DNA from: an uncultured Chloroflexia bacterium
GTDB lineage: Bacteria > Chloroflexota > Limnocylindria > Limnocylindrales > CSP1-4
Assembly (NCBI GenBank): GCA_963742075.1
Contig: CAVUKR010000004.1
Coordinates: forward strand, 10,084-74,083
Direction of reading: 5' to 3'
DNA: 64,000 nucleotides
Position numbers and translations under genes: made by a program. This document shows, piece by piece, positions 2,603 through 17,707 of the stretch; position 1 is the first letter of the stretch; each line of letters starts with the position of its first letter. The notes beneath the pieces were generated by a model. That model worked only from the letters and a program-made list of their open reading frames with translations, ran no database searches and was not told the DNA's origin.

Positions 2603-2627
2603 GGCGGTCCGACCCGGCGTCCGGCCC

Positions 2628-4512: not shown

Positions 4513-5425
4513 TCACGGAGTCAGCGTGACTGGCACCGGCCGGCCCTGCTGCACCTCGAGCACCGTTCGCTCGCCCAGCGGAGCGGCGAGCTCGAGCGCC
4601 GCGGTTCGCGGTGCCCCTTCGGCCGTGCAAGCCCCGATCGTCATGTGGGGATGGCGCGTCACGATGACGACAACCGCCAGATCTGACTCGACCGCCTCGG
4701 CCGTGTAGTCCTCGCCGCACGGCTGATCGCCTGGCAACGGTGCCCCGATGAACGCGACCGTGAGCTGGCGCCCGCCGACCGTCCCGCTGGCCGAGTCGAT
4801 GGCGAGCCCGACCGGAGGATCGTCGGGGTTCCAGGGTGGCAGGACGACGGCGATCGCGTCGGCGATAGCCGCGCGTGTCACGGTGACCGCCGTGCCCTCC
4901 ACGGTCAGGTCCCAGACGGGCGCGGTGGCGGATCCGCGGCTCGTCTCGATCGGGCCAGTCGTCAACCGCGCGTCGGTGATCCGCAGGGGCGTGCAGTCGC
5001 CACACGGCTCCGACGTGCCGGCTCTTGATCGCGGCGACAGCTTGTTGCGCGGAGATCAGGGCGACGGACACCGTCGTGCCGTCCTGCCAGCGAACCTCGC
5101 CGTCCGGTGGTGTCGCTGCCGGCAGGCTGGCGTCTGCCTCGACCAAGCCGGCCATCAGCGCGCGCTTGTTGTTGTCGCCGACCGCCGGCTCCCAGTCGCC
5201 GACCTGGCCGGTCAGTTCGCCGACGAGCACGACCGCTGACGGGCCGCCCGCCGCTGCCACCGCGTCGGCCCAACGGGTGAGTGCGTCGCGGGCCTGCTGT
5301 TGGAGCTTGGCCGAATCGTCGCCAATCCCCCCACAACCGGCCAGGACGAGCGCCATGGCAACCACGGCAAGAACTGCGCCGGGACGGAGACGCGGAGGGA
5401 CGGGGCGACGGACCGGACGGAGCAC
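4513..5425 (-). pseudogene. Lipoprotein gene with one frame change near 5020-5030 (true pseudogene or assembly indel)
   Basis: The N-terminal part (frame of ORF 4352..5425) has a signal peptide plus the lipobox LVLAGC. Coding-like sequence then continues in the frame of ORF 4513..4965 (...AAIKS / RAGTSEPCGDCTPLRITDARLTTGPIETS...). Confidence 0.5.
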
Positions 5426-5526
5426 GTCCAGACCGTCCGCCGCACCACGTCGAAAGTCAAGGCCGCCAATTCAGCGCCGCCGTGCTCAGCAGCGTGCCGC
5501 TGGGCCGAAGAGAGAACTCGGCGCCG

Positions 5527-5554
5527 TGGCAAATTCTTCGCCAATGTCACCCGG
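5527..5554 (+). repeat. Array repeat copy (23/28 match)
   Basis: Sequence tggcaaattcttcgccaatgtcacccgg. Its TGA on the minus strand is the stop of the upstream minus-strand ORF frame. Confidence 0.7.
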
Positions 5555-5962
5555 TATCCGATGTGCCCCATTCCCGGTGAAGCTCGTCCCAGGCCATCTG
5601 CGTCAACAGGCCGAACCAGGTCCGGAAACGCGCAGCGAATGACCAGCCATGAGTGTTCGACGCGACATTCCCGAGAGTCTCGAGGAGGCCGACCTTGAGC
5701 CGTATCGAACGCCGGCATCGCCTGTCCGAAGGTAGTGCTCGACGGTGGCAAAGACCGCCGGGAATTCGGCGGTGTCGGCCCGGTCGAGCAGCCCGACCAG
5801 GTGACGGGCGCACTCCCCAAGGTCGATGTAGACGCCACGCTCGCCGGGGTCCGGCCAGTCCGCAACGTAGTCACGCCACGGATCACGGAATGAAGGGCAT
5901 GCTTCAAGCAGCGCCGGGATGAGGACGCGATCGGGGTCGTGTGGTCCGGGCGGTTCCGTCAT
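5547..5962 (-). pseudogene. Immunity-like small protein, frame-shifted near 5700
   Basis: ATG 5962 overlaps the upstream stop (ATGA). The N-terminal part is MTEPPGPHDPDRVLIPALLEACPSFRDPWRDYVADW...ATVEHYLRTGDAGVR. The C-terminal part continues in the frame of ORF 5547..5813 (LKVGLLETLGNVASNTHGWSFAARFRTWFGLLTQMAWDEL). It is a paralog of 13893..14230. Confidence 0.5.
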
Positions 5963-6604
5963 TCGTCGCGACCTGGCCGCGAGCCATGGATCGGGTGCTC
6001 GGCCAGAACACGACGACGTAGATCGGCAGTCCGCTTGTGAGCCACGCTCGAGTCTCCCGTGGCGTCGAGGATCGCCTCGAAACGCCGCTCGCCAGCGGTC
6101 GTAGGTCGGCGTCCGTCGCACGATGTTCTCCATGCCTTGGGCATGCCGTACGCCAGGATTCGAGACGAAGTGGAAGCCGAACGACTCGGCCTTTTCGTCG
6201 ACGTCGTCGATGACCGCGAAGTCCCAGCGCAGCCAGCCGGGGTCTGACGGCATCTCGACCTCGGCCGGGAAGAAAGCGACCTCATCGCCAACGGAAAAGG
6301 GCGGGCCGGGCGGTTCCATGGCTTGGCGTTCGGGAATGTCACCCGAGGTCGTCGGCTCGATCGAAGCGATCGCCGAACCAGGAGCGTCCGGCGGCGTCGT
6401 ACTGGTGACCTCGCAGTGGTAGCAGCCATCGATTCCGTTGCCGCTGCGGTGCCAGTCGTGGCTTCCGCAATCCCTCGCCTTGGGTACGACCAACCCCAGT
6501 CGGTAGTACAGGACATCCGGCGTGTGGACCCGAAGCCACGCGCGCCATCGGGCATTGCGAAGGCTGAACGGGTAGTCGGCAACGTCTCGGTCTGACTGAG
6601 GCAC
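5959..6604 (-). CDS. Cys/His-motif protein (paralog of 12378..12608) with a C-terminal extension; probable frame change near 6090
   Basis: Leaderless signature TATCCT-GACGCC-GTG(6604). The N-terminus RDVADYPFSLRNARWRAWLRVHTPDVLYYRLGLVVPKARDCGSHDW...DGCYHC is about 80% identical to the second copy. The last part appears to continue in the frame that ends at 5959. Confidence 0.5.
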
Positions 6605-6629
6605 GGCGTCAGGATAGGTCGCGAACAGA

Positions 6630-6655
6630 TCGCAAAGCGTGCCTCAATGACACGG
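6630..6655 (+). repeat. Array repeat copy
   Basis: Sequence tcgcaaagcgtgcctcaatgacacgg, 25 nt from GTG 6604. Confidence 0.9.
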
Positions 6656-6671
6656 CGGGCGCAGTCGGCCG

Positions 6672-7490
6672 TCAATCCTGGTGATTTCGGGACTGCTCCC
6701 ATACGGCGACGATCGGCGGAAGGACTTCCACTATGAAACGTCGGGCGTCGTCAATCGAGGTCGGACCATGTGCGGTTGCCACTTCGAACACCGCGAGTCG
6801 ATCCGGCTCCGGTCCCGATAGCTGGATGGACCAAGATGGTTGCTCGACCCGCCAGACGAGGCCAGCGCGCTGACCGTCTGGTGCAATCACGTATGCGTCG
6901 CCAGTATGGTCAAGCGTGTCGAGCGACGATGTGATCAAACCGAGCCTCCAGCCCTCGGCTTCCACGCCATCGAGCACTGGGAACCCGTGGTAGACGGGGG
7001 CACCGGGCGGGGGCGCGAGAAACGCAGGGAGACGTGAATCAGCGGACTCGGCGGCGGTGTCCAGTGCGACCGGGTGACCAACCGTATCGAAGGGTCGGTC
7101 CGTTGGTGTCCAGGCTGGGAACGCCCCTCGAGCCTCGGGGACCGTTAGACGGCGCGTAGGAACGTCCTGACGACGGGGTCGCTTCTCCCCGCGACGGTCC
7201 GCCAGCAGCCACCGGGTGGCATACACGAACAATGCCAGGTCGAACGCGAGGAAGGCCCCGCCGACGAACAGCCGCCACTCGAGTTGCCCACGGACGTCGC
7301 CAGGGGAGTAGGTCACTGTCGGAAAGAAGACCCCCAGGACGAGGAAGACCATCGTCACGGGCCCAACGATCAAGAGCGCCTTCGCCGACGCGCGTCGTCG
7401 GACATAGGCATGGAACATACGCCAATAGGCGTCGTCGTCCATCTCTGTCCCTTTCGGACTCGGGGATCGTCCACCGCGTTCCAGCGACAT
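6672..7490 (-). CDS. Hypothetical membrane-anchored protein
   Basis: 272-aa ORF. The more likely start is ATG 7442, which has AAAGGGA 6 nt upstream. It has two TM helices followed by a soluble C-terminal domain. Confidence 0.6.
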   Translation of the reverse strand: MSLERGGRSPSPKGTEMDDDAYWRMFHAYVRRRASAKALLIVGPVTMVFLVLGVFFPTVTYSPGDVRGQLEWRLFVGGAFLAFDLALFVYATRWLLADRRGEKRPRRQDVPTRRLTVPEARGAFPAWTPTDRPFDTVGHPVALDTAAESADSRLPAFLAPPPGAPVYHGFPVLDGVEAEGWRLGLITSSLDTLDHTGDAYVIAPDGQRAGLVWRVEQPSWSIQLSGPEPDRLAVFEVATAHGPTSIDDARRFIVEVLPPIVAVWEQSRNHQD

Positions 7491-7526
7491 TCTCCGTCCG
7501 TACGACGGGGTGCGAGCGCCGCTTGG

Positions 7527-7553
7527 TCACTCAGTGTTCGCCAATAACACCAG
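7527..7553 (+). repeat. Array repeat copy, degenerate
   Basis: Sequence tcactcagtgttcgccaataacaccag, about 18/27 match to the consensus. Confidence 0.5.
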
Positions 7554-7595
7554 CACGTCACATGGTTGCGGCCCGCGCCTCCGGGGCTTTGGCGT

Positions 7596-8228
7596 TCAGC
7601 TGAGGAAGATCAGCGCGATTGCGATAGCGCTGGCCGCGACGACCGGTATCTGGAGCAAGCCGCTGCGCGAGATCTGCGCATGAGCGATCGCCTTCCCCGT
7701 CTGTTCATCGACGCCTCGCATCGCCCGAACCGCTGTCGCGCCGGTCGCGCCGATCGCGAGAGCGGACGCTCCACTGATCAGGCCGAGGATGACGAATGGC
7801 CAGTCAGTGAGGGCCTTCGTGGGTTCTTCGACGATGAAGAGCGCCAGCAATGCAACGACGATGCCAAGGACGACGACTTCGAGGATGTAGACGGCAGCGA
7901 GTGTCGATATCCGAGGATCGCCGACGCCCCGCTGGCGGGCAACGAGGGCGAGCCCGATGATGCCGCCAATCGCTGCAGGTCCAGCCGCCAAGAGTCCATC
8001 GGCCGGGTCCGTGACGTCGCCCGCGACAAAGATGGCCAGCAATCCGACGACCGTACCCAAGACGGCAGCGCCCAGGCAGAAGGCCATGAGGATCATCGCG
8101 AGACTTCGGCCCGTTGGGACCTGGCGGCTAACGACCGCTCCATCGGGGGGCCACGTGCCCGTGGAGATCAGACCGAGCGCGACGGCGGCCCCAAAGGAGG
8201 ATAAGCCAGTCATCAGCAGTGGGCCCAC
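7596..8228 (-). CDS. Hypothetical polytopic membrane protein
   Basis: 210 aa with about 6 hydrophobic helices. GAGAGG lies 6 nt upstream of GTG 8228. Confidence 0.6.
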   Translation of the reverse strand: MGPLLMTGLSSFGAAVALGLISTGTWPPDGAVVSRQVPTGRSLAMILMAFCLGAAVLGTVVGLLAIFVAGDVTDPADGLLAAGPAAIGGIIGLALVARQRGVGDPRISTLAAVYILEVVVLGIVVALLALFIVEEPTKALTDWPFVILGLISGASALAIGATGATAVRAMRGVDEQTGKAIAHAQISRSGLLQIPVVAASAIAIALIFLS

Positions 8229-8356
8229 GAAGAACCTCTCGACGGCGAGTGTCGGGCCAGCATAGCCACGCAGAGGCGCTCGATCAGCTTCGCCGTGCCA
8301 CCGCTTCGAGAAGGCCGCACAAACCGATCAGCTGACCGACGGAATATTCCCTGCCG

Positions 8357-8380
8357 TCACATAGCGTTCGTCAGTGACGC
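8357..8380 (+). repeat. Array repeat copy, degenerate
   Basis: Sequence tcacatagcgttcgtcagtgacgc, about 16/24 match. Confidence 0.4.
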
Positions 8381-8446
8381 TTGCTCTCGCCGGGCGCGCG
8401 GTCGGCCCATGCGCGACCGGGCGGGCTGGCGCGCCGTCTTCCTGCC

Positions 8447-8809
8447 ATGAAGGCGGTCGCCGGTCTGCTGCTCTGCTCACTCGTCGCGTGCTCCGCGGCG
8501 GGGGCTAGCGCCACGCCACCGATATCTGCCGAGGCAGCTCAGGCCGTGGCCCTCAGCAATGCCGGCTCGTCGACCCCACCGCGCGTCCTCTCGGTCCGGC
8601 TGTCCACCTACGGGCTGGAGACTTCCGGCGGGTTGGTCGTTGCCGCCGCCACACCGGTCTGGTCCGTTCTCATTGCCGGCTCCTTCCCGTCCTCCTGCGG
8701 CCCGTATACGGCCACCCCGCATCCCTGCCCGGCCCCAGCGACGACCGAGCGCGTGCTGGTCGACGCCAGAACGGGTTCCTTCATCGAGGGCGACATCCCG
8801 GGAACGTAA
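8447..8809 (+). CDS. Putative lipoprotein
   Basis: ATG 8447. MKAVAGLLLCSLVACSAAG is a signal peptide with a lipobox. Confidence 0.6.
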   Translation: MKAVAGLLLCSLVACSAAGASATPPISAEAAQAVALSNAGSSTPPRVLSVRLSTYGLETSGGLVVAAATPVWSVLIAGSFPSSCGPYTATPHPCPAPATTERVLVDARTGSFIEGDIPGT

Positions 8810-8839
8810 AGGGCCGGCCATGGCGAACGGAACGCGTGG

Positions 8840-8866
8840 TCGCAAAGCGTGCGCAGATGACACCAG
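8840..8866 (+). repeat. Array repeat copy
   Basis: Sequence tcgcaaagcgtgcgcagatgacaccag, lying between convergent ORFs. Confidence 0.9.
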
Positions 8867-8879
8867 AGATGGGCCCTGC

Positions 8880-9293
8880 TTAACGCTCGACGAGTTGGCA
8901 GGGACCGACGCCGCAGTAGACGCCAACCGCGACTCGCGTGCCATCAGCGAGGTCGAGCACGACTACGCCGACTGTCGAACTGCCCTCGGCGGTGCCGGGG
9001 ATGGACTCTTGGTAGAAGCCGTGGCCGACGATGGCCGCTGGGGCGACGCCTCGTTTGCTTGTCGCCGTATCTGTGGCGACTCGCAGATATTCATCGCATG
9101 TGGCATCAGCGTAGGCGGCGCAATCGAGGGGAGTTCCGAGCGTGTAGTGGTCGACCACCGTTCCTGATACAAGCGCGCCGCTTGCCGTCGATCCACCCGA
9201 GCATCCGGCGAGGACGATGGCTTGCATGAACACCATGAGTGCTAGAGCGCGGACTCGTGTCCGTTTGCGATTGTCCCGGCGAAGGGCCCTCAT
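8880..9293 (-). CDS. Putative lipoprotein
   Basis: Leaderless signature TACCCT-GAACTA-ATG(9293). The signal peptide ends in IVLAGCSGG. Confidence 0.65.
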   Translation of the reverse strand: MRALRRDNRKRTRVRALALMVFMQAIVLAGCSGGSTASGALVSGTVVDHYTLGTPLDCAAYADATCDEYLRVATDTATSKRGVAPAAIVGHGFYQESIPGTAEGSSTVGVVVLDLADGTRVAVGVYCGVGPCQLVER

Positions 9294-9318
9294 TAGTTCA
9301 GGGTACTGGCCGTTACAA

Positions 9319-9342
9319 TCGCATAGCGTGCTGGAACAACCC
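9319..9342 (+). repeat. Array repeat copy, degenerate
   Basis: Sequence tcgcatagcgtgctggaacaaccc. The first 13 nt are nearly perfect. Confidence 0.55.
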
Positions 9343-9393
9343 TAGAGAGTACCCACGGGACGTCCCGAAATCGGGACGACATCAAATCGATCG

Positions 9394-9744
9394 TCAGGGA
9401 GCCTGGCGACGCTCGACCTCTTCGAGCATCTCTCGCAGGATGTCAGCTTGATCGGTGGCCGACAGCAGATACGGGCCACGTCCTCGCAATGCCTCTCGCC
9501 GGCTCTGGATCCGGGTCCACTGACCATCGTCGCCCATCAGATCCACGCTCCACTCGTCCCGATCTCGCACGAGCCGTACGGCGACCGGTCGAGTCAGGAT
9601 GACCTCCTGGTTGCCGAAGGACTCGGAGTCGTAGCGGTCGCGCACAACCACGAAACCCCGGTCAGCAAGCCAAGACCGAAGATCGGCCATAACGGCATCG
9701 TCGGCTGTCCATCCGACGGCGCTCGGGTCCTTTCTGGAAGGCAT
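9394..9744 (-). CDS. Hypothetical small cytoplasmic protein (immunity-like)
   Basis: Leaderless signature TACCCT-N7-ATG(9744). 116 aa with no TM segment. Confidence 0.6.
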   Translation of the reverse strand: MPSRKDPSAVGWTADDAVMADLRSWLADRGFVVVRDRYDSESFGNQEVILTRPVAVRLVRDRDEWSVDLMGDDGQWTRIQSRREALRGRGPYLLSATDQADILREMLEEVERRQAP

Positions 9745-9770
9745 TGGGACGAGGGTACATCCCGGCCTGG

Positions 9771-9794
9771 TCAGTCAGCGTCCGCCGATGTCCC
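9771..9794 (+). repeat. Array repeat copy, degenerate
   Basis: Sequence tcagtcagcgtccgccgatgtccc, about 17/24 match. Its first 3 nt are the stop codon of ORF 9771..10094. Confidence 0.5.
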
Positions 9795-10094
9795 TTGAGC
9801 CGATGGCGTCCTCTCCGACACCGAGAGGAATACGCAGGTCGCGAGTGGACGTGCACCTTCGCGAAGCACGAGTCTCGCGTTTCGGGCGGAATCGGGCTGC
9901 GATCTCAGGAAGACTGCCAGGTACGAGCAGCCGCACGGTGCCTCGTCCGGAGTGGAGTGTGGGAGCGAGACGACCACGCTGAACGCGTCGCTAACCGGCT
10001 CTTGCTCAAACGTTGCGACGAGGCGGAGGGTCTCAGGCAATTGCCGAAGACTGTCTACCACCGTAACGGAGACGGTCGCCTCTGGATCGCGCAT
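9771..10094 (-). CDS. Hypothetical protein
   Basis: Leaderless signature TAGCCT-N8-ATG(10094). 107-aa ORF. Confidence 0.45.
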   Translation of the reverse strand: MRDPEATVSVTVVDSLRQLPETLRLVATFEQEPVSDAFSVVVSLPHSTPDEAPCGCSYLAVFLRSQPDSARNARLVLREGARPLATCVFLSVSERTPSAQGTSADAD

Positions 10095-10121
10095 GCGGTC
10101 TCAGGCTACCCGACCTTGGTG

Positions 10122-10244
10122 TCGCAAAGCGTGCGCGAATGTCACCCGGTCGCGTGCTGTCAAACCTAGCGGGATGTCGAGCCACGTCGATGCGGCCATG
10201 CCGGCTCGGGCGAACCAATCTGCCGGGAGGGAAACCTATGATCG
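10122..10244 (+). repeat. Extended 123-bp repeat, copy A (starts with the 28-mer at 10122-10149)
   Basis: About 90% identical to 15570..15693, with about 11 substitutions and one 1-nt indel. Confidence 0.9.
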
Positions 10245-10267
10245 CAAAGCGTGCGCCAATGACACAT
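10242..10267 (+). repeat. Array repeat copy
   Basis: Sequence tcgcaaagcgtgcgccaatgacacat, directly abutting extended copy A. Confidence 0.9.
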
Positions 10268-10364
10268 GACCGTGCGGCCCGCTGTGATGGTTGCAGTCGG
10301 CCCTTGACGAGGTTCTGGAGCGGGCACACGATCGTGCGGACAGCGACCCGCGCAGGGGGCCAAC

Positions 10365-10583
10365 TTGGGCGATCTGGAACGGATGCTCGATCTATACGGA
10401 CCGCTCTGGATCATGATGATGCTCTGGATCGGGCTTGCGGGCGCCGTCGCAATCGCCGCGGGCCGACGGGGCTACAACCAATACATCTGGTTTTTTGGAT
10501 GCCTGGTGCTATCCCCGCTCATCGGTTTCGTGCTCCTGGCACTGCTCACTCCCGGACGCGGAGGCCCTCATCGGCCAGCCTGA
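10365..10583 (+). CDS. Small two-TM membrane protein
   Basis: The start is TTG 10365 or ATG 10383. The product is MLDLYGPLWIMMMLWIGLAGAVAIAAGRRGYNQYIWFFGCLVLSPLIGFVLLALL. Confidence 0.55.
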   Translation: MGDLERMLDLYGPLWIMMMLWIGLAGAVAIAAGRRGYNQYIWFFGCLVLSPLIGFVLLALLTPGRGGPHRPA

Positions 10584-10632
10584 CCGCGCACGTCACTGGT
10601 GACCAACGTTTATCGGCGACGTTGCCGCATCG

Positions 10633-10660
10633 TCGCAAAGCGTGCGTCAATGTCACCCGG
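10633..10660 (+). repeat. Array repeat copy
   Basis: Sequence tcgcaaagcgtgcgtcaatgtcacccgg, followed by tcgcgcg as in the extended repeat. Confidence 0.9.
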
Positions 10661-10707
10661 TCGCGCGATCGACATGGGACCCCAGAATGTCTAGCAGCGT
10701 CGGAAGG

Positions 10708-11175
10708 TCAGCTAACACGGCCGACCTGAAAGTCGCCCGTGGCGGCCTCAACGAAGCCTTCCTCCGTCAGCCGGGTCTCCATAAGGGGCAGGCCGCGCTC
10801 GATCACAACTGCAACGATCTGGGCCGTCAGGCGATCGAGGTCCGTGCATGCGTCAAGGTCCCACCAATGGTCTTCCCCGTCGTCGATCAGCTCGCCAATC
10901 CGCAGCTGCCAGCTGCAACGATAGGAAGGCGGCTTCCGACTCGGATCGTGACCCTGGGCAGCTAAGACACGGTCAAGCCCAACCCCGATATTGATTGTGA
11001 ATCGCACGTGAGCCCGTGAACCGAACTGAGACTTCTGGAAGTTGACGACCCCCCAGCCGTCCGCTCCGCGTCGATGAAAGCTCGAACCGGTCTTGGTCAA
11101 TCCGCGTCCGCGTAGGGCCGGCGCGATGTCGGTCGTCAACCACCCTGCAAATCGTTCAACGGCTGTGTCAGGCAT
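10708..11175 (-). CDS. DUF4304-like protein
   Basis: The pattern APALRGRGLTKTGSSFHRRGADGWGVVNFQKSQFGSRAHVRFTINIGV matches DUF4304 as I recall it. AGAGGG Shine-Dalgarno upstream of ATG 11175. Confidence 0.75.
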   Translation of the reverse strand: MPDTAVERFAGWLTTDIAPALRGRGLTKTGSSFHRRGADGWGVVNFQKSQFGSRAHVRFTINIGVGLDRVLAAQGHDPSRKPPSYRCSWQLRIGELIDDGEDHWWDLDACTDLDRLTAQIVAVVIERGLPLMETRLTEEGFVEAATGDFQVGRVS

Positions 11176-11267
11176 GGCGGTTGCCCTCTATCGCATTCAA
11201 TCGACAAGCGGGCCACGAGTGTACGAGCCCGGACTTGTGTCACGTCTCGTGATACAGCGTCTATCTA

Positions 11268-11293
11268 TCGCAAAGCGTGCGCCAATAACGCTT
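11268..11293 (+). repeat. Array repeat copy
   Basis: Sequence tcgcaaagcgtgcgccaataacgctt. Confidence 0.85.
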
Positions 11294-11353
11294 GAGGTCG
11301 TGCGACCAAGGCGTGGGATCTATCGGCCGATGACGATGGATATCCGTACTGAC

Positions 11354-11713
11354 CTATTCGTGAATCCCAGCGAGAGCAAGGACGCCAACGAGGATAAGTA
11401 CCACGACAAGGACACCTCCCGTGACCAATACCGCCAGCAGCCGCTCATCCATGACTGGCTGACTGGGATATCCAAGATGACGGGCGATGAGCCACGCGCC
11501 CACGACCGTGACAGCGATCACTGCGCCAGCGTTACTCGGCGCTGCGACTGCGACCAGCACCGCCAAAGAGCCCAGGCCGAGCATGATCAGAAGCCGGAGA
11601 ACCACTGGCTTCCCGAGGGTGAGTCCTGCACGCCGAGCAGCGAAGAGGGCGCCGGTGATGGCGACCACTCCAACCAACGTCGCGCCGAGGAGGACGAAGA
11701 CCTCTCGACTCAC
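11354..11713 (-). CDS. Small membrane protein (4 TM)
   Basis: 119 aa and hydrophobic. GTG 11713 overlaps the stop of the upstream small ORF (GTGA). Confidence 0.6.
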   Translation of the reverse strand: MSREVFVLLGATLVGVVAITGALFAARRAGLTLGKPVVLRLLIMLGLGSLAVLVAVAAPSNAGAVIAVTVVGAWLIARHLGYPSQPVMDERLLAVLVTGGVLVVVLILVGVLALAGIHE

Positions 11714-11868
11714 GGGATCGGGCTCGCCTTGCAGTCATCTACAGCCACGACGATTGGCAGGGCAGCCGCAAGACAGACACAGATCAGACCCGGAGCCACC
11801 AGGCGCAGCGTCCCAGCCAAGGGGTCATCCATCAGCACGACGATATCCCGCGTCCGATGTGCGGGCAA
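11710..11868 (-). CDS. Candidate 52-aa single-TM peptide, translationally coupled
   Basis: Below the ORF-track size cut-off. TAGCCT-N9-TTG(11868). The product ...LRLVAPGLICVCLAAALPIVVAV... ends with its stop overlapping the next start. Confidence 0.3.
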   Translation of the reverse strand: MPAHRTRDIVVLMDDPLAGTLRLVAPGLICVCLAAALPIVVAVDDCKASPIP

Positions 11869-11909
11869 CGATCAGGCAGGCTACGCCACGAAGAGACACG
11901 GGCCTTTGG

Positions 11910-11936
11910 TCGCAAAGCGTGCGCCAATGTCACCAG
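11910..11936 (+). repeat. Array repeat copy
   Basis: Sequence tcgcaaagcgtgcgccaatgtcaccag. Confidence 0.9.
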
Positions 11937-11958
11937 ATCGACGACGGCAAGCTTGCTT

Positions 11959-12294
11959 CTATCGGGCGATCACGACGACGATCACGGCAAGCGACAGCAC
12001 CAGTGCAGCCACCAGAGCGCTCGTGAGCCATTTGGAGCGAGGCCGATCTCGAGTCAACCAGTACGCCGCGAAGCCGGCCGACGCTGCGGCGAGCACGAGG
12101 CCCAACGCCTCGGGTGCCGGCCCTTGGAGCAGGACTGCCAGCACGACCATGACGACCGCCAGCCCAACGAACAATCGAGCGAGCCACGGGCTGGCATCGA
12201 CAACCGCCTCGCGCCCGCCGCGTTGCCAGATTGGGAAGACGACGACCATGGCGGTCACGACCATCGTCACGAGGGCGGCGTAGGCGTAGGCCAC
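11959..12294 (-). CDS. Small membrane protein (about 4 TM)
   Basis: Leaderless signature TATCCT-CTTGCC-GTG(12294). The hydrophobic product is the C-terminal part of ORF 11959..12552. Confidence 0.5.
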   Translation of the reverse strand: MAYAYAALVTMVVTAMVVVFPIWQRGGREAVVDASPWLARLFVGLAVVMVVLAVLLQGPAPEALGLVLAAASAGFAAYWLTRDRPRSKWLTSALVAALVLSLAVIVVVIAR

Positions 12295-12335
12295 GGCAAG
12301 AGGATACGCACAGTCCGCAGACAGATGAGCTGCCG

Positions 12336-12363
12336 TCTGACAGAGTGCGCCGATAACGCCAGA
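12336..12363 (+). repeat. Array repeat copy, degenerate
   Basis: Sequence tctgacagagtgcgccgataacgccaga, about 18/28 match. Confidence 0.4.
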
Positions 12364-12377
12364 GTCTGATGGGCAGG

Positions 12378-12608
12378 CTACCCAGAGGGCGTCGCGGGCC
12401 TCGGCCTCGTGACATCGCGGTGGTAGCAGCCGTCGAGTCCGTGGCCCTTGTTGCGCCAATCGTGGCGCCCGCAATTGCGAGCCTTGGGCACCACCAATCC
12501 CAGACGGTAGTACAGGACATCGGGCGTGTGCACCCGAAGCCAGGTGCGCCATCGAGCATTCCGAATGCTGAACGGATAGTCAGCAACGTCGCGGGCTGGG
12601 TCTGACAT
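12378..12608 (-). CDS. Cys/His-motif small protein (paralog of the 6604 N-terminus)
   Basis: Leaderless signature TATGCT-GAGGCC-ATG(12608). The product contains RDVADYPFSIRNARWRTWLRVHTPDVLYYRLGLVVPKARNCGRHDW...DGCYH. Confidence 0.6.
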   Translation of the reverse strand: MSDPARDVADYPFSIRNARWRTWLRVHTPDVLYYRLGLVVPKARNCGRHDWRNKGHGLDGCYHRDVTRPRPATPSG

Positions 12609-12633
12609 GGCCTCAGCATAGGTGTCGGCCAGA

Positions 12634-12661
12634 TCGCAAAGCGTGCGTCAATGTCACTTGG
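12634..12661 (+). repeat. Array repeat copy
   Basis: Sequence tcgcaaagcgtgcgtcaatgtcacttgg. Confidence 0.9.
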
Positions 12662-12723
12662 CAGTACGGGCGAACCCGCGTTCCAGGGTCGTCGAGGCTG
12701 TCTGGAAAGGAAGGTTGGTGGGG

Positions 12724-13173
12724 CTACCGAGCGGCTTGGCTCACACCCCACGCGATCAGAACGACAACAGCCACCAATCCGACGATCAGCAGCACGCCAG
12801 CCAGCGTGCCCAGATAGTCCACGAAGGGTTCAGTCACCGCCGCCCCGATGTCATCTTGCGGACCTGTCGAGGTCACGGTGCGGGACAGACGAGTCAGGAA
12901 GCGGAGCACGATGGCGAGGTAGATGCCGCCGCCGATGACCAACCCCGCTCCCAGGAGTGGCTCGGTCGCCAGCATTTGGAGTCCGACCCACGGGAGCACG
13001 ATCGCGCCGATCAGTGTCGGCACGAACATCAACCATACGAACTGACCCTGCCGAGCCATCACGCGACGAGCTGCGCAGTGGCGCACGCCGACCAGCAGTA
13101 CCACAACGGCGATCGCGACGAGGACGGGTGTCTCCATCGCGGGAAGTGTCCATCGGGAGAAGCCGCGAATCAA
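12724..13173 (-). CDS. Hypothetical membrane protein (4 TM)
   Basis: 149-aa hydrophobic ORF. The start is TTG 13173 or ATG 13137. Confidence 0.6.
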   Translation of the reverse strand: MIRGFSRWTLPAMETPVLVAIAVVVLLVGVRHCAARRVMARQGQFVWLMFVPTLIGAIVLPWVGLQMLATEPLLGAGLVIGGGIYLAIVLRFLTRLSRTVTSTGPQDDIGAAVTEPFVDYLGTLAGVLLIVGLVAVVVLIAWGVSQAAR

Positions 13174-13260
13174 TCGCGCGACGGGCCCCTCGCCTTGCGG
13201 TGTCGGCGGGCACCCGAAGCCCGATGAGCGGGAAGGGACACCCGGCAGACCTCTCTGCTA

Positions 13261-13288
13261 TCCATCAGTGTCCGTTAATGTCACCCGG
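13261..13288 (+). repeat. Array repeat copy, degenerate
   Basis: Sequence tccatcagtgtccgttaatgtcacccgg, 19/28 match. The 3' half is perfect. Confidence 0.55.
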
Positions 13289-13411
13289 GCCGTCTCACGC
13301 CCTATGTATGGAATGCGCACGTGGACTCGACCCCCGGCGCAAGGTCCGCAATCAGATCGTGAAGTAGTCGCCCTCGGAGGATCCGTGGGAACGCGGAGGG
13401 GAGACGACTGG

Positions 13412-13930
13412 GTGTCCAAGCCGATCGGGCGCGGGATCGTGGTGGTGGCGTTGGCCGCAGCCGCTCTCCTCGTCGGCATCGTGATCATCCCTCGCATGGA
13501 AAACGTCTTCGCGGGCGCGGCTGGCATTCATGACGCCGCGTCGCTACCCGAGCAGATCAACATCTGCGGGCGCAGTTGGAGCAAAGACGCGTTGAACCGC
13601 GAGTTCAGCCTGGCCGAGATCCGGGCGCGGGACGGCATCGAGCCCGTCGTCGTGGACCCTGGACTGTTCGCGTCGTGCCCGGCCGGGCCGTGCACGACGC
13701 TGGCTCAGAGCGGTCCCTGCGATACCGTGATCTGCGTGCGCGTCGGCGAGGATGCTTACCTTGACTATGCGCTCCAAGGCAGACAGTACGCGCACGCCGC
13801 CAGAGCACGTGATAGCGAAGTTGACCGAGTCGGTGGCCGTAGCGAAATATCCTTGGCTCCGCCCAGCTTGATCCTGAGCGACACGAGCCGGTTCAGGCGG
13901 TCGAGCGGGGACAGGTTCTCGGCAAGGTGA
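13412..13930 (+). CDS. Membrane-anchored Cys-rich hypothetical protein
   Basis: GGAGGGGAG lies 8 nt upstream of GTG 13412. It has a signal-anchor helix followed by ...ICGRSWSKDAL...CPAGPCTTLAQSGPCDTVICVRVGEDAYLDYALQG. The C-terminal tail may be read-through. Confidence 0.5.
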   Translation: MSKPIGRGIVVVALAAAALLVGIVIIPRMENVFAGAAGIHDAASLPEQINICGRSWSKDALNREFSLAEIRARDGIEPVVVDPGLFASCPAGPCTTLAQSGPCDTVICVRVGEDAYLDYALQGRQYAHAARARDSEVDRVGGRSEISLAPPSLILSDTSRFRRSSGDRFSAR

Positions 13931-14230
13931 TGGATCGAAGCGACAGGTCCTCGAGGTTAGTCAGGAGCGAAAGCACCTCGATGCGCTTCGCTGACCACGA
14001 GGTGAAGGATTCGAGTCCTCGGAACCGATCTGGGAGCGTCAGGTGCCAGCCTTGCTTTCGGCCGGCGCGATATCGAGGTACACGAGGGGCCGTACCCAGA
14101 TGGCCTCGGCCTGGTGGGCTCGCCACGCATTCTTGAACGAGGGGCATGCGGCCACAAAGGCGGACATCACCGGCCCCGACTGGGCTTGATGCTGGTTCTC
14201 GCTGACCGGGCCGTCGCCCACATCACCCAT
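13893..14230 (-). pseudogene. Immunity-like protein remnant (paralog of 5547..5962), frame-shifted
   Basis: Leaderless signature TATCTT-GCGACG-ATG(14230). The motif FVAACPSFKNAWRAHQ parallels LLEACPSFRDPWRDY. Coding-like sequence continues in the frame of ORF 13893..14147. Confidence 0.4.
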
Positions 14231-14255
14231 CGTCGCAAGATACGGCACCGTCGAG

Positions 14256-14284
14256 TCGCAAAGCGTGCGGGAATGTCATCCGAG
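14256..14284 (+). repeat. Array repeat copy
   Basis: Sequence tcgcaaagcgtgcgggaatgtcatccgag. Confidence 0.9.
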
Positions 14285-14438
14285 CGCTTTGGAGCCCAAT
14301 GCGCGGTAGGACGAGGCCGTGGACACGATCGTGGCGGAGACTCGGCGCAGTCGCCAAAGAGGCTCTCGCGCCGGTCCAGTACTCTCGGCCCAACAGGAAG
14401 TTGGGCGACTCGGGCAGGAACGGAGCGTGAGACCGTCC

Positions 14439-14783
14439 ATGGTCGATACCTACGGTGGCGGCCTCTTCGTGGCCACGTGTGCCGTCTCGTTCTTCGTGTT
14501 GTTCTCGACGATCCTCTCCAGCCTGTTTGTTCCCGTGGATCGGCTCACCTCGATGCCAACGTGGTATCGGACACTGACCATCCCGAGGCGAACCCGCCCG
14601 GTGCTCCTGTACTACAAGGCGGCGTGCTCCGTGTTCCTGATCCTGAGCCTGACACTGCCGCTGTTCGTGCTCCTCAAGTGGGACCAGGTCGGGGCCCAAG
14701 ACCATGTCGCCGGGGCGGCGAGTTGGATCGGGATCCTGATCTGGTCCGCCGTTCTCTGGAGGACGGTCGGCGGGGTTCGGTAG
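14439..14783 (+). CDS. Small membrane protein (about 4 TM)
   Basis: ATG 14439 lies within ORF 14319..14783. The product begins MVDTYGGGLFVATCAVSFFVLFSTILSSLFV... Confidence 0.5.
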   Translation: MVDTYGGGLFVATCAVSFFVLFSTILSSLFVPVDRLTSMPTWYRTLTIPRRTRPVLLYYKAACSVFLILSLTLPLFVLLKWDQVGAQDHVAGAASWIGILIWSAVLWRTVGGVR

Positions 14784-14803
14784 GTCGCACTTTGTCGGTC
14801 GTG

Positions 14804-14830
14804 TCGCAAGGCGTGCGCCAATGTCACCCG
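14804..14830 (+). repeat. Array repeat copy
   Basis: Sequence tcgcaaggcgtgcgccaatgtcacccg. Confidence 0.9.
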
Positions 14831-14909
14831 AGGACTCAGGGCTCGACCTGCACATGAGCCGATGAGGTCATCAGGTGGCTTTGACCTGGGCGGCATAGTC
14901 CGCGGGCTG

Positions 14910-15395
14910 TCAGCCGGTGTTCGGTGGGTACTCGCCCACCCAGTACTGCTTGATCGCGACGCCCCGCGCCCGAAGTTCGACGAACAGTTCGCGGATCCGG
15001 GGCCGGGGCCAATAGCCAAGGGTCAGCCGGGTCACGGGCACGCCATCGCGTGTCAGCCGCAACGAGGCGATGTTCTCGAGGGTGAACTCGGCCTGCGTCC
15101 GCCCGTCGAGCGCAAGCACGACGCCCGGCCGCTGGAGCAGGACCTCGATCCAGCGCCGCACCACGACCGTGTCGTCGGAGAACGTCAGCTCGCGCTGGAT
15201 GTAGAGCCAGCCGCCGTCGATGAACAGAAACGCGAACGCGGCCATCACTACGACCAGGAACCCGACCCACCACTGCTCGGTGCCTACCCGCAGCGTCGCC
15301 ATACCCCGAACGGCGACCACCACCCCGGCCACGCACACCACGACAAAGAGGATCGGCCCCGGTTGGGGCGCTGGTGGATTGACGCGCGTCGTCAC
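14910..15395 (-). CDS. Membrane protein with a soluble C-terminal domain
   Basis: GTG 15395 overlaps the stop of the upstream small ORF (GTGA). It has two TM helices and then ...LYIQRELTFSDDTVVVRRW... Confidence 0.55.
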   Translation of the reverse strand: MTTRVNPPAPQPGPILFVVVCVAGVVVAVRGMATLRVGTEQWWVGFLVVVMAAFAFLFIDGGWLYIQRELTFSDDTVVVRRWIEVLLQRPGVVLALDGRTQAEFTLENIASLRLTRDGVPVTRLTLGYWPRPRIRELFVELRARGVAIKQYWVGEYPPNTG

Positions 15396-15541
15396 GTCGC
15401 GTCTGCTCCGGCGATCCCGCTCCCGGCAGAGATGACCTCGCTCGACAGGGCCCTCATACCGAACGCATCCTCGACGATGCTGCCTGTTGCCGGTCCGTCG
15501 GCCAGGACCGCCATTGAACCGACCATTACGAAGACACGCAT
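15392..15541 (-). CDS. Candidate 49-aa leaderless small ORF
   Basis: TACCAT-N9-ATG(15541), located 13 nt after the repeat. The product is MRVFVMVGSMAVLADGPATGSIVEDAFGMRALSSEVISAGSGIAGADAT. GC3 is about 75% by hand count. Confidence 0.3.
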   Translation of the reverse strand: MRVFVMVGSMAVLADGPATGSIVEDAFGMRALSSEVISAGSGIAGADAT

Positions 15542-15569
15542 CTGGAGTCCATGGTACGGGTCGTTCTCG

Positions 15570-15693
15570 TCGCAAAGCGTGCGCGAATGTCACCCGGTCG
15601 CGCGCTGTCAAACCTAGCCGGATGTCAAGCCACGTCGATGCGGCGAGGCCGGCTCGGCGCGAACCAAGTTGCCGGGCAAGAAACCTATGATCG
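15570..15693 (+). repeat. Extended 124-bp repeat, copy B (starts with the 28-mer at 15570-15597)
   Basis: About 90% identical to 10122..10244. Confidence 0.9.
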
Positions 15694-16288
15694 TGGAGTG
15701 AACATCTTCCAGATCGTCCTCGTTCTTGCCGTCTTGATCCTGTGGCTCTTACTCCTCAACTCGTGGCGGTTGAGGAACTGGCGGGCAGTAACCTTGGGTG
15801 CGGTTGGGACGATCGTGTTCCTGGCCGCCGGGATGCTTCCCAGCTCGGTCCGGGAAGTGGCTCAACCTGGCATCTGTTTCGTGTTCGTGTGGGTCTTCCT
15901 GTTCCGGCCGGGGCTCGTCGGCGTGATGCCCCCGGAGGAGTACGACTATGTCGATGCGCACATCCAGATCTTGCGGCGGATCGATCGGCGGAAGCACGCC
16001 TCCGATCGACCCGACCCGACGACCGCTCTCCGCGAATACGAGTCGGACGTACGATCGCTCGAAGCACTCGACGCGCCGCTGGCATGGTCGAAACTCCACC
16101 GGGACACGGTTCGAGAGCTGGAGCGACGATTGACCGCCATGAAGGCAGGAACGCTGCGGTCCCCTGAAGACTTGCGGCCATTTGACGACCGCTGGCTCGA
16201 GGTCGGGCAACTCTTCCGGGACACCCTGAGGGCCAGGGCTGGGTTCTGGACTGGCTGGCCCCATTTGGTCCGACGCTCGGGGTCGTAG
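15689..16288 (+). CDS. Membrane protein with a helical cytoplasmic C-terminal domain
   Basis: GTG 15689 starts VNIFQIVLVLAVLILWLLLLN... The same frame is also open back to the ATG inside the 28-mer. Confidence 0.55.
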   Translation, partial: DRGVNIFQIVLVLAVLILWLLLLNSWRLRNWRAVTLGAVGTIVFLAAGMLPSSVREVAQPGICFVFVWVFLFRPGLVGVMPPEEYDYVDAHIQILRRIDRRKHASDRPDPTTALREYESDVRSLEALDAPLAWSKLHRDTVRELERRLTAMKAGTLRSPEDLRPFDDRWLEVGQLFRDTLRARAGFWTGWPHLVRRSGS

Positions 16289-16297
16289 ACAGCGTCA

Positions 16298-16325
16298 TCG
16301 CAATGCGTGCGCCAATGTCACCTGG
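16298..16325 (+). repeat. Array repeat copy
   Basis: Sequence tcgcaatgcgtgcgccaatgtcacctgg, 10 nt after stop 16288. Confidence 0.9.
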
Positions 16326-16401
16326 CGAGCTTCGTCGACGGATAGGCAGCCTGTGGCAAGCTCTGGCGCTGAGACTCGGGAGCTTTCAACCAACTCTGCG
16401 G

Positions 16402-16428
16402 TCAGACAGCGTCCGCCAACGTCGCCTG
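16402..16428 (+). repeat. Array repeat copy, degenerate
   Basis: Sequence tcagacagcgtccgccaacgtcgcctg, about 19/27 match. It resembles the copy at 9771. Confidence 0.45.
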
Positions 16429-16566
16429 ACATGATCGACCGTCGACAGCCAGGACCTCGTAGGGCGGCCCCGGTGCCCCGGCCGGACAATGAACCGTCAC
16501 GTATCGGCGCTGCTTAGGCACGGCGTCTCGGCACGCGCTGCGGTCACGATCCCGAGAAGCGTCCAT
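16402..16566 (-). CDS. Candidate 54-aa leaderless ORF (possibly a remnant)
   Basis: TACCCT-CGGCGC-ATG(16566), located 13 nt after repeat 16592. The stop lies inside degenerate repeat 16402. Confidence 0.25.
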   Translation of the reverse strand: MDASRDRDRSACRDAVPKQRRYVTVHCPAGAPGPPYEVLAVDGRSCQATLADAV

Positions 16567-16591
16567 GCGCCGAGGGTACAGCGCCCCGGCA

Positions 16592-16618
16592 TCGCAAAGC
16601 GTGCGTCGATGACGCCAG
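16592..16618 (+). repeat. Array repeat copy (right-most)
   Basis: Sequence tcgcaaagcgtgcgtcgatgacgccag. Confidence 0.9.
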
Positions 16619-16673
16619 AGCGCATCGATCTCTGGCAGCGACCCGACAGTACCGGCCGCCTAGACTTGGTGCC

Positions 16674-16862
16674 ATGACCGACCTGGGTGTGACGCTGCTC
16701 TTCGCTGTTGCGGCGGTCTTCCTGGTGGTTGGACTCAGCGCGGGTATCGCGACGGAGCACACCGACGCCCAGCTACCCCGGGCGGTCACGTACGGACAGC
16801 GTCGTCGCCATGTCCGGCGTCGAGCGTTGCTCGTTGAAGTCCCAGTCATGGGCTTAGCGTGA
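16674..16862 (+). CDS. Possible small single-TM protein
   Basis: ATG 16674 starts MTDLGVTLLFAVAAVFLVVGLSAGIA... The tail overlaps the convergent DUF1801 gene. Confidence 0.3.
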   Translation: MTDLGVTLLFAVAAVFLVVGLSAGIATEHTDAQLPRAVTYGQRRRHVRRRALLVEVPVMGLA

Positions 16863-17264
16863 TTTCGCCGGAGGCTTCTTCTTTGCGAACTGGGGCGCCA
16901 GCTTCAGGTAATGGTCGAAGCCTGACTGGGCGATCTGGCCCAGTTCCTCGACTAGTGGCTCGTCGACGGTCGTGAAGTTGAAGCACGACTTGCCCTGCAT
17001 GCGGCGGCGCAGAGCGGGCGACATCGACTCGACGACCTCGGGTTGGGCGTAGACCGACATCAGGTAGACGCTGACGTAGCGCTTGCCCACGCGAGTGCCG
17101 CCGACGTAACCCCACGGCTCGGCTTCGAGCCCGGGGATCTGGAGGATCAGGCCGTCGGCATCGTCCTTGGTCGCCACCAGCCGCGAGCGGAACGGGTCGA
17201 AGATCATGCGAAGACGGCGATCGACCTCGGCGAAGGCCACCGTCGGTGGCGGACGACCACTCAC
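16854..17264 (-). CDS. DUF1801 (YdhG-like) domain protein
   Basis: The pattern ...WGYVGGTRVGKRYVSVYLMSVY...RRRMQGKSCFNFTTVDEPLVEELGQI... is typical of this family. Confidence 0.75.
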   Translation of the reverse strand: MSGRPPPTVAFAEVDRRLRMIFDPFRSRLVATKDDADGLILQIPGLEAEPWGYVGGTRVGKRYVSVYLMSVYAQPEVVESMSPALRRRMQGKSCFNFTTVDEPLVEELGQIAQSGFDHYLKLAPQFAKKKPPAKSR

Positions 17265-17266
17265 GG

Positions 17267-17707
17267 TCAGGCCAACCCTGTGGAAGGCACGACGACCTCG
17301 AATCCTTCGCGCTCCGCCGCTTGAGCGAGACGATCATCGAGGGTCACGAGCGGGAGCGAGGCCGGACGATCCTCGGATGCGCTGATCGCGGCGCCGAGCT
17401 GAAACGCGTCAGCTGCCCGCAGCCCATGCACGCGGAGGAGCCGATTGGCTGTCTGACGAATCCGGTCGACCGGCTGGACCTCCTGCCAAGCGTGCACGAG
17501 CTCGTCGAGACGTTGGATCGCTTTCGCGCTGCCAGGGCCATCCAGCCTCGCCTCGCGTTCCATTCGGGCGATGGCCGACACACATTCGACCCGAGTCGCC
17601 CACCAGACGATGATCTCGCCGTCCCGTTCGACCTCGGCCATGGCGGCCGAGGTCGAGGGCTCCCCGACGAGCAGGGGCACGATCGCCGACGTATCCCAGA
17701 ACCTCAT
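17267..17707 (-). CDS. vapC: Type II toxin, PIN-domain ribonuclease VapC
   Basis: MRFWDTSAIVPLL... carries the conserved acidic residues (D5, E, RAADAFQ, TLDDRL). It overlaps the upstream antitoxin by 4 nt. Confidence 0.9.
   Translation of the reverse strand: MRFWDTSAIVPLLVGEPSTSAAMAEVERDGEIIVWWATRVECVSAIARMEREARLDGPGSAKAIQRLDELVHAWQEVQPVDRIRQTANRLLRVHGLRAADAFQLGAAISASEDRPASLPLVTLDDRLAQAAEREGFEVVVPSTGLA

Follow-up and report, generated by a model that had tools for sequence, protein, structure and literature searches.

What does a short repeat do when it stands both behind and ahead of a series of unrelated small genes? The question is raised by a stretch of 64,000 nucleotides (nt) from contig CAVUKR010000004.1 of an uncultured Chloroflexia bacterium (assembly GCA_963742075.1), hereafter called the window, whose minus strand carries many copies of a 28-nt repeat among small open reading frames (ORFs). 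An earlier note on this DNA described eight minus-strand modules of fixed layout: behind the repeat come exactly 13 non-conserved nt, then a TANNNT hexamer and, after a further 6-9 nt, the start codon. It read the repeat as a shared operator, activator site or unusual -35 region that would turn the island into a cis-organised regulon. The explanation that we favour, and hold for probable although far from assured, is that the 28-mer serves as the site where small mobile cassettes join in a chromosomal array, resembling those of integrons or of the rAID-1 system, and that many of these cassettes start with a leaderless promoter 13 nt inside. In the literature searched, arrays of this kind in Chloroflexota are not described.

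The repeat and the borders of the cassettes

The core of the repeat, ACGCTTTGCGA, occurs 14 times in the window with at most one mismatch, always on the minus strand and between positions 6630 and 16602, where 0.68 copies are expected by chance. Repeat finding stretches the unit around this core to about 28 nt, with the minus-strand consensus TC-GGTGWCATTssCGsACrCTTTGCGA. A weight matrix built from the good copies and applied with a cut-off of at least 16 bits gives 22 copies, on the minus strand only, which define an array at 5527-16619 with co-oriented repeats lying 104-995 nt apart. Outside these limits, no match of at least 8 bits was found on either strand of the 64 kb. The G+C content of the array (0.62-0.65) is lower than that of its flanks (about 0.70).

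In an exact-pattern scan that took one genome per species, multi-copy arrays in a single orientation were found only in bins titled Chloroflexia, Chloroflexota, Chloroflexi or Candidatus Limnocylindrales; other phyla gave single matches that lack the 5' half of the motif. A metagenome scan added 55 further soil contigs with 145 unique junctions (labels such as L008 or L014 below designate the compared genome-bin loci and metagenome contigs). The motif is about 85-100% identical across genomes whose cassettes are unrelated, which implies selection on the motif itself. A phage or plasmid origin was rejected, as megablast of positions 5000-18000 gave no match and viral contigs yielded 12 single chance-level matches and 0 arrays. 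The genes of the window (BCKDH, aldehyde dehydrogenase, an MFS transporter and others of this kind) are those of an ordinary chromosome, and the window is syntenic with metagenome contig L110 (DAO, PlsY, Lpd, E1-alpha, E1-beta, then small genes), which holds different cassettes.

The bodies of the cassettes are nearly all unrelated: there are 7 shared families among 83 cassettes and 76/83 have no detectable relative in other cassettes, so duplication is rare. Those that recur in different contexts help to place their borders. A module with NTF2-like and SnoaL-like genes is common to the window, L025 and L022. In the window it forms a solo two-gene cassette of 1.4 kb on the minus strand (52100-53545, with the NTF2-like gene at 53081-53446 and the SnoaL-like gene at 52149-52577), located between degenerate remnants of the repeat and 91-93% identical to the modules of L022 and L025, two of the Chloroflexota bins, which stand in other contexts. 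The homology starts right after ...GCGA| (the bar marking the border) and ends at or in the next repeat, and the three flanks are unrelated. L038, L027 and L014 have another cassette, cassette X, in common. It was inherited along with its 3' repeat and divergence sets in directly after GCGAC, whereas its 5' repeat differs at 4/24 positions and was not co-inherited, even though the body is 93-95% identical. For an esterase cassette, the homology between L020 and L031 runs from exactly TTGCGA, the rest of the repeat being absent in L031. Similarly, an ORF-less mini-cassette of 92 nt (10150-10241) is duplicated at 15598-15693 with about 88% identity, and at this second site the homology begins at CGA|, beside non-repeat DNA, with only the CGA of the upstream repeat present. 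The comparison of L018 and L029 also agrees with a boundary at the repeat. A local dip in G+C (0.66) is seen at 52100-53545.

The places where the arrays sit give a concordant picture. Arrays downstream of the same PPDK-like gene in four genomes (L014, L025, L030, L038) hold different cassettes, and so do those downstream of the same mfd gene in three contigs (L045, L056, L062); at both sites the homology between genomes stops at the stop codon of the housekeeping gene. Duplication within the window's array is seen twice, at 6393-6653 and 12397-12657 (261 nt, 81% identity) and at 10102-10244 and 15550-15693 (about 87%). The content is not uniformly oriented, since the best ORF lies on the opposite strand in about a quarter of the cassettes, and solo copies of the repeat occur between convergent genes, with no gene downstream of them (L025, L018). 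On these comparisons, the repeat is above all the boundary of what appear to be mobile gene cassettes, a point that the earlier note did not consider.

With respect to orientation, the arrays lie directly downstream of, and in the same direction as, the mfd genes and PPDK-like genes just listed and the dnaB gene of L029. The mfd stop codon stands in the context GAGTGA, which is similar to a frequent variant of the repeat's 3' end.

The promoter geometry within the junctions

The eight modules of the earlier note were recovered exactly, from the start at 16566 to that at 6604. Read on the minus strand, they comprise TACCCT (16573-16578) 6 nt before an ATG whose first base is 16566, TACCAT (15551-15556) 9 nt before the ATG at 15541, TATCTT (14237-14242) 6 nt before the ATG at 14230, TATGCT (12615-12620) 6 nt before the ATG at 12608, TAGCCT (10103-10108) 8 nt before the ATG at 10094, TACCCT (9752-9757) 7 nt before the ATG at 9744, TACCCT (9300-9305) 6 nt before the ATG at 9293 and TATCCT (6611-6616) 6 nt before the GTG at 6604. 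The ninth ORF, for which a longer spacer had been noted, also holds: TATCCT (12301-12306) stands 6 nt before the GTG at 12294 and 29 nt behind a degenerate copy of the repeat. The statement that the repeat ends alike in the eight cases needs qualification, since six of them end in ACGCTTTGCGA and the copies at 9771 and 9319 are degenerate, with GCTGACTGA and ACGCTATGCGA, respectively, in its place.

Beyond these cases, the geometry is a property of a minority of the junctions. In the window, TANNNT is found at +13 after 8/22 copies of the repeat and the remaining 14 lack it. When the window is joined to the genome loci, the hexamer occurs at exactly +13 in 23/82 unique junctions against a background of 0.0017 per position (P ~1e-44), and the genome loci without the window still give 15/60 (P ~1e-28). 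Among the junctions of the metagenome contigs it occurs at +13 in 25/145 and at +12 in 8 more, mostly followed by ATG or GTG after 6-7 nt. The pooled junctions display the geometry in 49/228. The spacing is sharp: 13 nt dominates, 12 and 11 are far rarer and 14-19 nt are almost absent; the distance from hexamer to start is 6 or 7 nt in 15/25 cases (window and genome loci). The hexamer at +13 accompanies 17/69 cassettes with a co-oriented ORF and 0/26 of the inverted ones (Fisher P = 0.005), and 13/17 of the ORFs behind it begin at +24 to +28. Other junctions carry a -10 box at differing offsets, and the remaining cassettes have Shine-Dalgarno-type or differently spaced leaderless starts, are inverted or have decayed.

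A -10 box placed 6-9 nt before the start codon leaves no space for a Shine-Dalgarno sequence, which is the arrangement of leaderless mRNAs. The junctions with TANNNT at +13 and a co-oriented ORF are therefore credible candidates for leaderless promoters, in which the repeat would occupy about -26 to -53, as had been correctly calculated. Leaderless promoters with TANNNT about 6-7 nt before ATG or GTG and without Shine-Dalgarno sequence have been described in Actinobacteria and Deinococcus-Thermus (Zheng et al. 2011, PMC3160421; Cortes et al. 2013, PMC3898074), and the layout from hexamer to start is the same here. What differs is the lineage, Chloroflexota, the fixed distance of 13 nt between the -10 box and a 28-bp repeat, and the bias of the box towards TACCCT. 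The actinobacterial signature invoked in the earlier note is thus present, although the host very probably belongs to Chloroflexota, as do the bins with arrays, and not to Actinobacteria. It also extends beyond the island: among the core genes of the window and the loci, 17/121 ORFs with high G+C at third codon positions (GC3) have TANNNT 6-8 nt before a candidate start, and 0 have it at 3, 5, 10 or 11 nt. Judging from these predicted starts, the leaderless arrangement is a general habit of the lineage and not a peculiarity of the island. Core starts of this type include those at 22709, 41361 and 54948 of the window, and one core ORF has a textbook TTGACA-N17-TAAGTT promoter.

The junctions without promoter provide an additional clue. 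In them, conservation is still seen for G at +8 (68%), T at +9 (55%), T at +14 (60%), C at +15 (52%) and C at +17 (66%) and no longer for T at +19, which draws a right-hand box made up of G, T, four variable nt and T[A/C]CCC (+14 to +18). The fourth position of the hexamer is C in 84% of the promoter junctions versus 7/17 of the core -10 boxes. Judging from these conserved letters, the -10 hexamer coincides with a second conserved box, T[A/C]CCC, which is weaker and forms part of the junction itself. The overlap of the two is a likely reason for the fixed 13-nt spacing, for which no regulator would be needed, and both the conserved letters and the bias to C speak against a simple operator. The right-hand box may be the second half of a protein-binding site. 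An inverted symmetry between the 5' end of the repeat (GGGTGA) and the box at +14 to +19 was considered and discarded as weak (2.36/6 complementary positions versus 1.4-1.9 at other shifts, and no covariation).

As for the upstream half of these promoters, a promoter scanner found no canonical two-hexamer -35/-10 pair in the array region, which makes a bound factor or an unusual upstream element plausible. The idea that GTGACA or TTGCGA of the repeat acts as the -35 hexamer of a canonical sigma-70 promoter was rejected on the same result and on the spacers that it would require (31 and 13 nt). In the syntenic contig L110, the repeats have largely decayed and TACCAT-N6-GTG is retained; the persistence of leaderless -10 boxes where the repeat has decayed indicates that the repeat is not obligatory for transcription. 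The corresponding array position in L110 (7280-11239) lies downstream of BCKDH E1-beta.

The array in the window and its cargo

The promoter-type junctions of the window follow the repeats at 16592-16619 (37.6 bits), 15570-15597 (43.8 bits), 14256-14283 (38.9 bits), 12634-12661 (43.9 bits), 10122-10149 (43.8 bits) and 6630-6657 (28.5 bits), as well as the degenerate ones at 9771-9798 (21.1 bits) and 9319-9346 (17.7 bits). Well-preserved copies also stand at junctions of other kinds. No -10 box at +13 follows the repeats at 16298-16325 (41.7 bits), 14804-14831 (41.1 bits) and 8840-8867 (40.0 bits), whose cassette ORFs are probably inverted (15551-16288, 14319-14783 and 8381-8809 on the plus strand, the last with a lipoprotein signal), nor that at 10633-10660 (44.7 bits). 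The copy at 10242-10269 (43.5 bits) precedes the ORF-less 92-nt cassette, that at 11910-11937 is the best of all (47.4 bits) and has TCTCTT at +13, and that at 11268-11295 (38.6 bits), with TATCAC at +13, lies upstream of a DUF4304 cassette. The other degenerate copies are found at 16402-16429 (22.1 bits), 13261-13288 (22.1 bits), 12336-12363 (16.7 bits, the copy 29 nt upstream of the ninth -10 box), 8357-8384 (22.1 bits), 7527-7554 (27.9 bits, upstream of ORF 6672-7490 with its Shine-Dalgarno-type start), 6319-6346 (24.2 bits, within the long ORF 5603-6604) and 5527-5554 (28.4 bits, the most downstream copy). From its codon-position G+C, the plus-strand ORF at 13268-13930 is, like the three inverted ORFs just mentioned, probably a real gene that opposes the array; none of these four cassettes has TANNNT at +13.

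The repeat begins 12-62 nt after the end of the preceding ORF. In the degenerate copies at 9771-9798 and 16402-16429, the terminal CGA is replaced by a TGA with which the preceding cassette ORF stops in frame (9771-10094 and 16402-16566, respectively). Continuity of frame with an upstream ORF is seen for only two copies, both degenerate, so that a coding role (RVTLAHALR in frame 2) was rejected as a general explanation of the repeat.

Several minus-strand cassette genes deserve individual mention. The gene at 9394-9744, with a leaderless start, encodes a 116-amino-acid (aa) protein with 14 homologues, nearly all of 113-117 aa, a constancy which argues that both the gene and its start are real and conserved. 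One of the homologues lies between two repeats, beside Imm26 and Imm33-like genes. Another, in L110, is near a PNPOx gene, and the same pair occurs together in L109, where there are no repeats. The gene at 10708-11175 belongs to DUF4304 (E = 2.7e-20). A 76-aa protein is encoded at 12378-12608 and its paralogue is the N-terminal part of ORF 5603-6604; the duplicated head (6393-6653/12397-12657) encodes this family (MSDPARDVADYPFS...), which has conserved Cys and His residues. Its homologues in four metagenome arrays (L055, L065, L068, L079) have the same geometry of -10 box and start. The 333-aa ORF 5603-6604 itself runs through the degenerate repeat at 6319-6346, bears DUF7674 at its C-terminal end and shifts in GC frame along its length; it probably consists of two or three fused or decaying cassettes. 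The genes at 8880-9293 (137 aa, with a signal or lipoprotein-like N-terminus) and 9771-10094 (107 aa, no family match) complete the set.

Across the loci, Pfam families recognised in the cassettes of the genome loci are DUF4304 (twice), DUF4265, DUF6881, DUF6193, Barstar, DUF4279, Imm1, T6SS_Tdi1_C, DUF7674 and DUF6869; those of the metagenome arrays are DUF6188 (four times), DUF6869 (three times), SUFU, Imm74, DUF4304 and DUF7674. A search of NCBIfam with ten cassette proteins of the window gave one sub-threshold match only. Many of the cassette genes fall in immunity families of polymorphic toxins, so that the arrays, taken as a family, fit a heterogeneous polyimmunity locus and that of the window is probably one of them; we infer an immunity function for the cargo from these family assignments. 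At the upstream edge of the array, a toxin-antitoxin pair made up of VapC (PIN) and Phd/YefM is encoded on the minus strand (17267-17997); it is absent from L110.

Origin of the array and known systems

From the borders and the promoter geometry we infer site-specific recombination and leaderless transcription, respectively, and the two can be combined as follows. A cassette would begin directly behind ...TTGCGA, contain a single small gene (in occasional cases two, or none) and reach up to the next repeat, which would be its own 3' end. Cassettes would be gained, lost and exchanged by recombination resolving at the 3' end of the repeat, through an enzyme encoded away from the array. In a fifth to a third of them (about 20-35%), TANNNT located 13 nt past the crossover and a start 6-7 nt further on would produce a leaderless mRNA, as predicted at the sequence level; the repeat may, in addition, be bound by a shared regulator or serve as the promoter's upstream half. 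The other cassettes would presumably be expressed from their own signals or by read-through. A bolder version of this scheme, which we find possible yet doubtful, is a hitherto undescribed gene-capture platform of Chloroflexota that needs neither integron integrases nor a folded attC. Circular cassettes would be inserted by an unlinked recombinase, at a double-stranded site of about 45 bp with its crossover at TTGCGA|, and this site would at the same time provide a leaderless promoter with its upstream half and its -10 box.

Several observations count against the cassette explanation. No recombinase was found beside the arrays examined except that of L008, and the flanks consist of housekeeping genes: no Phage_integrase domain was detected in the ORFs within about 5 kb on either side of the window's array or in the flanks of 10 other arrays, and no recombinase is among the best 25 of the 46 families listed for the rest of the window. 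Neither an excised circle nor a direct pair of insertion and empty site was seen. On the 3' side of the L018 and L029 comparison, the homology ends at the stop codon and the boundary is less regular. Because the repeat is highly conserved, crossovers inside it are indistinguishable from homologous recombination, and the two junctions that share only a 3-6-nt core are the sole evidence against plain homologous recombination. The transcription starts are read from sequence alone, and the sharp preference for 13 nt would fit a contact with an activator or a sigma factor too. Regarding the cargo, DUF4304 and DUF7674 are the only families recognised in the cassettes of the window itself, the majority of cassette proteins have no match, and the weak GC3 signal makes the gene calls inside the island uncertain.

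The neighbourhood of the arrays is varied. The window has a 136-aa protein, VapBC and BCKDH upstream of the array, and PPDK-like, mfd, dnaB or DEAD helicase genes take this place elsewhere, with YmdB also among the flanking genes; the large conserved protein found upstream of several arrays was considered as a toxin or recombinase and turned out to be the PPDK-like or Mfd housekeeping protein. In L008, a large serine recombinase (Resolvase and Recombinase domains) and a rolling-circle Rep gene (1929-4527) stand just upstream of the array, and they may represent an unrelated integrated element. Among the genes of the arrays examined and of their surroundings, there was no candidate for a regulator.

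That last result bears on the regulon, in which the 28-mer would solely be an operator, activator site or unusual -35 element through which one factor or an alternative sigma factor co-regulates the island, the boundaries being a by-product of recombination between identical sites. We give this possibility a low though appreciable probability. The repeat and the -10 box are strictly spaced (13 nt in 49 junctions), a pattern seen typically with class II activators or between -35 and -10 hexamers. A canonical -35 is missing, the motif is strongly conserved across genomes ahead of unrelated genes, and three boxes read from the logo (ATTGGCG, CTTTGCG and the G at +8) are phased about 11 nt apart, as in direct-repeat sites of the OmpR/PhoB or SARP type. 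Nevertheless, about 75-80% of the copies have no -10 box at the required distance, and copies also precede inverted ORFs, ORF-less segments or, for the solo ones, no gene at all. Conversely, some cassettes have only the last 3-6 nt of the repeat upstream, and leaderless -10 boxes survive where it has decayed. The regulon also leaves unexplained how unrelated genes come to stand behind the same 28-mer. What persists of the earlier proposal is the leaderless arrangement, the position calculated for the 28-mer and a plausible factor acting at promoters that lack a canonical -35; a cis-organised regulon fits poorly with a geometry that the majority of the junctions lack and with a repeat that marks the borders of cassettes. 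Alternatively, no dedicated machinery would be required if the array grew by local duplication and divergence, helped by RecA-dependent or microhomology-mediated exchange at a short conserved promoter remnant, and if the repeat had no present function in recombination. The two duplications in the window and the rarity of adjoining recombinases are in line with this idea, and homologous exchange, too, should resolve in ACGCTTTGCGA, the longest stretch without variation. Yet the lack of relatives for most cassettes, the near identity of the motif across genomes with unrelated cassettes and the two left junctions that share merely 3-6 nt with the repeat are at odds with it, and 28 bp are very short for efficient homologous recombination; we judge it distinctly improbable.

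Two further possibilities would place the repeat in known categories. A classical integron array minus its integrase (CALIN), with the 28-mer as part of attC, would account for a co-oriented array with a repeat after each small ORF, a very diverse content and some inverted cassettes. Against it, the motif has no inverted partner on either strand of the window, no conservation was detected upstream of position -3 across the junctions, the folding of 83 junctions has a mean z of about 0 on both strands relative to shuffled sequence, and the GTTRRRY and RYYYAAC cores are absent from the consensus. An attC-like site was rejected on the missing partner and fold; in addition, no IntI was found beside the arrays and many cassettes carry their own promoter, which leaves this origin with hardly any credibility. 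An element acting at the RNA level after each gene, such as a 3'-UTR stabiliser, a processing site, a terminator or a small RNA, would suit the location of the repeat shortly after the stop codons of the upstream ORFs. It is just as improbable, given the lack of a folding signal and of a consistent pairing partner, the two matches in Rfam (at chance level and unrelated to the repeat), the chance-level frequency of terminator-like sites in the region and the fact that positions of the motif vary by sub-family and not by compensatory change. REP/RAYT, MITE or Correia-type repeats were set aside as well, the motif being asymmetric, devoid of fold and confined to arrays instead of spread over the genome, and so was the 11-6-11 symmetry of dif/Xer-like sites, as the arms of the consensus, checked by eye, are not inverted copies. 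Taken together, the missing inverted partner, fold, Rfam match, terminator excess and canonical promoter exclude attC, REP/MITE-type elements and structured RNAs from the likely identities of the repeat.

The interest of the junction site favoured here goes beyond this locus. Orphan immunity-gene arrays are a defence against contact-dependent toxins and are known mainly from gut Bacteroidales, and integrons are, to our knowledge, the only well-understood platform for the capture of cassettes; the locus follows a like logic in an abundant and almost uncultured soil lineage. The junction is of a different kind, with a short asymmetric double-strand repeat, no adjacent recombinase and expression apparently solved for each cassette by leaderless promoters. 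If the recombination is site-specific, bacteria would have a second means of assembling cassette arrays, distinct in mechanism, and the compact site of 28-45 bp could be used to find the enzyme. If the capture-platform version is true, an immunity gene would be expressed as soon as it has landed. In either case, the motif provides a search handle with which small proteins of unknown kind could be retrieved from soil metagenomes by the hundreds, many of them candidates for immunity proteins.

Some likenesses concern the promoter. PhoB pho boxes and SARP sites are direct-repeat sites of activators that replace the -35 hexamer. They share with the repeat an asymmetric site abutting the -35 region, a fixed distance to the -10 box and sub-boxes phased at about 11 nt, a likeness that serves as a lead; unlike them, most copies here have no downstream promoter. 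Halovirus HF2 (PMC8707807) has a short intergenic repeat associated with promoter elements, but it is an archaeal virus with AT-rich archaeal promoters and is not known for cassette mobility.

Other likenesses concern gene arrays. Integron arrays share the tandem, mostly co-oriented small cassettes in which an ORF is followed by its own 3' recombination-type repeat with the crossover at the 3' end, the diverse and mostly unknown cargo, the occasional inverted cassettes and the differing content at the same locus in relatives. However, the integron attC is a folded imperfect palindrome, whereas the motif is a 28-bp asymmetric double-strand sequence conserved as such. There is no adjacent integrase and no apparent attI or Pc, and the arrays occupy several chromosomal sites downstream of housekeeping genes. 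Integron cassettes are mostly promoterless and depend on the common Pc, whereas many of the present ones bring their own -10 box. The rAID-1 arrays of Bacteroidales have a XerD-like tyrosine recombinase at the 5' end, co-oriented short orphan-immunity genes, a skewed G+C content and conserved intergenic motifs (Ross et al. 2019, doi 10.1101/471110; PMC12247911). The arrays studied here have in common with them at least two co-oriented short genes including orphan immunity families, the skewed G+C, the conserved intergenic motifs and an integron-like variability; they differ by the lack of a XerD-like gene at the 5' end, by phylum and motif, and by a leaderless geometry tied to the motif. Extended heterogeneous polyimmunity loci, reported only from Proteobacteria, Bacteroidetes, Firmicutes and Actinobacteria and assumed to be polycistronic (Zhang, Aravind et al. 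2012, PMC3482391), resemble the present arrays, taken as a family, in having many unrelated immunity-type genes in tandem and no toxin gene and in varying between relatives, but the present loci belong to Chloroflexota and have a defined junction repeat and promoters for individual cassettes. Lacking the defining features of integrons (IntI, attC) and of rAID-1 (the XerD-like gene), the locus is best regarded as a polyimmunity or cassette array with a junction repeat of its own and a promoter geometry built into the junction.

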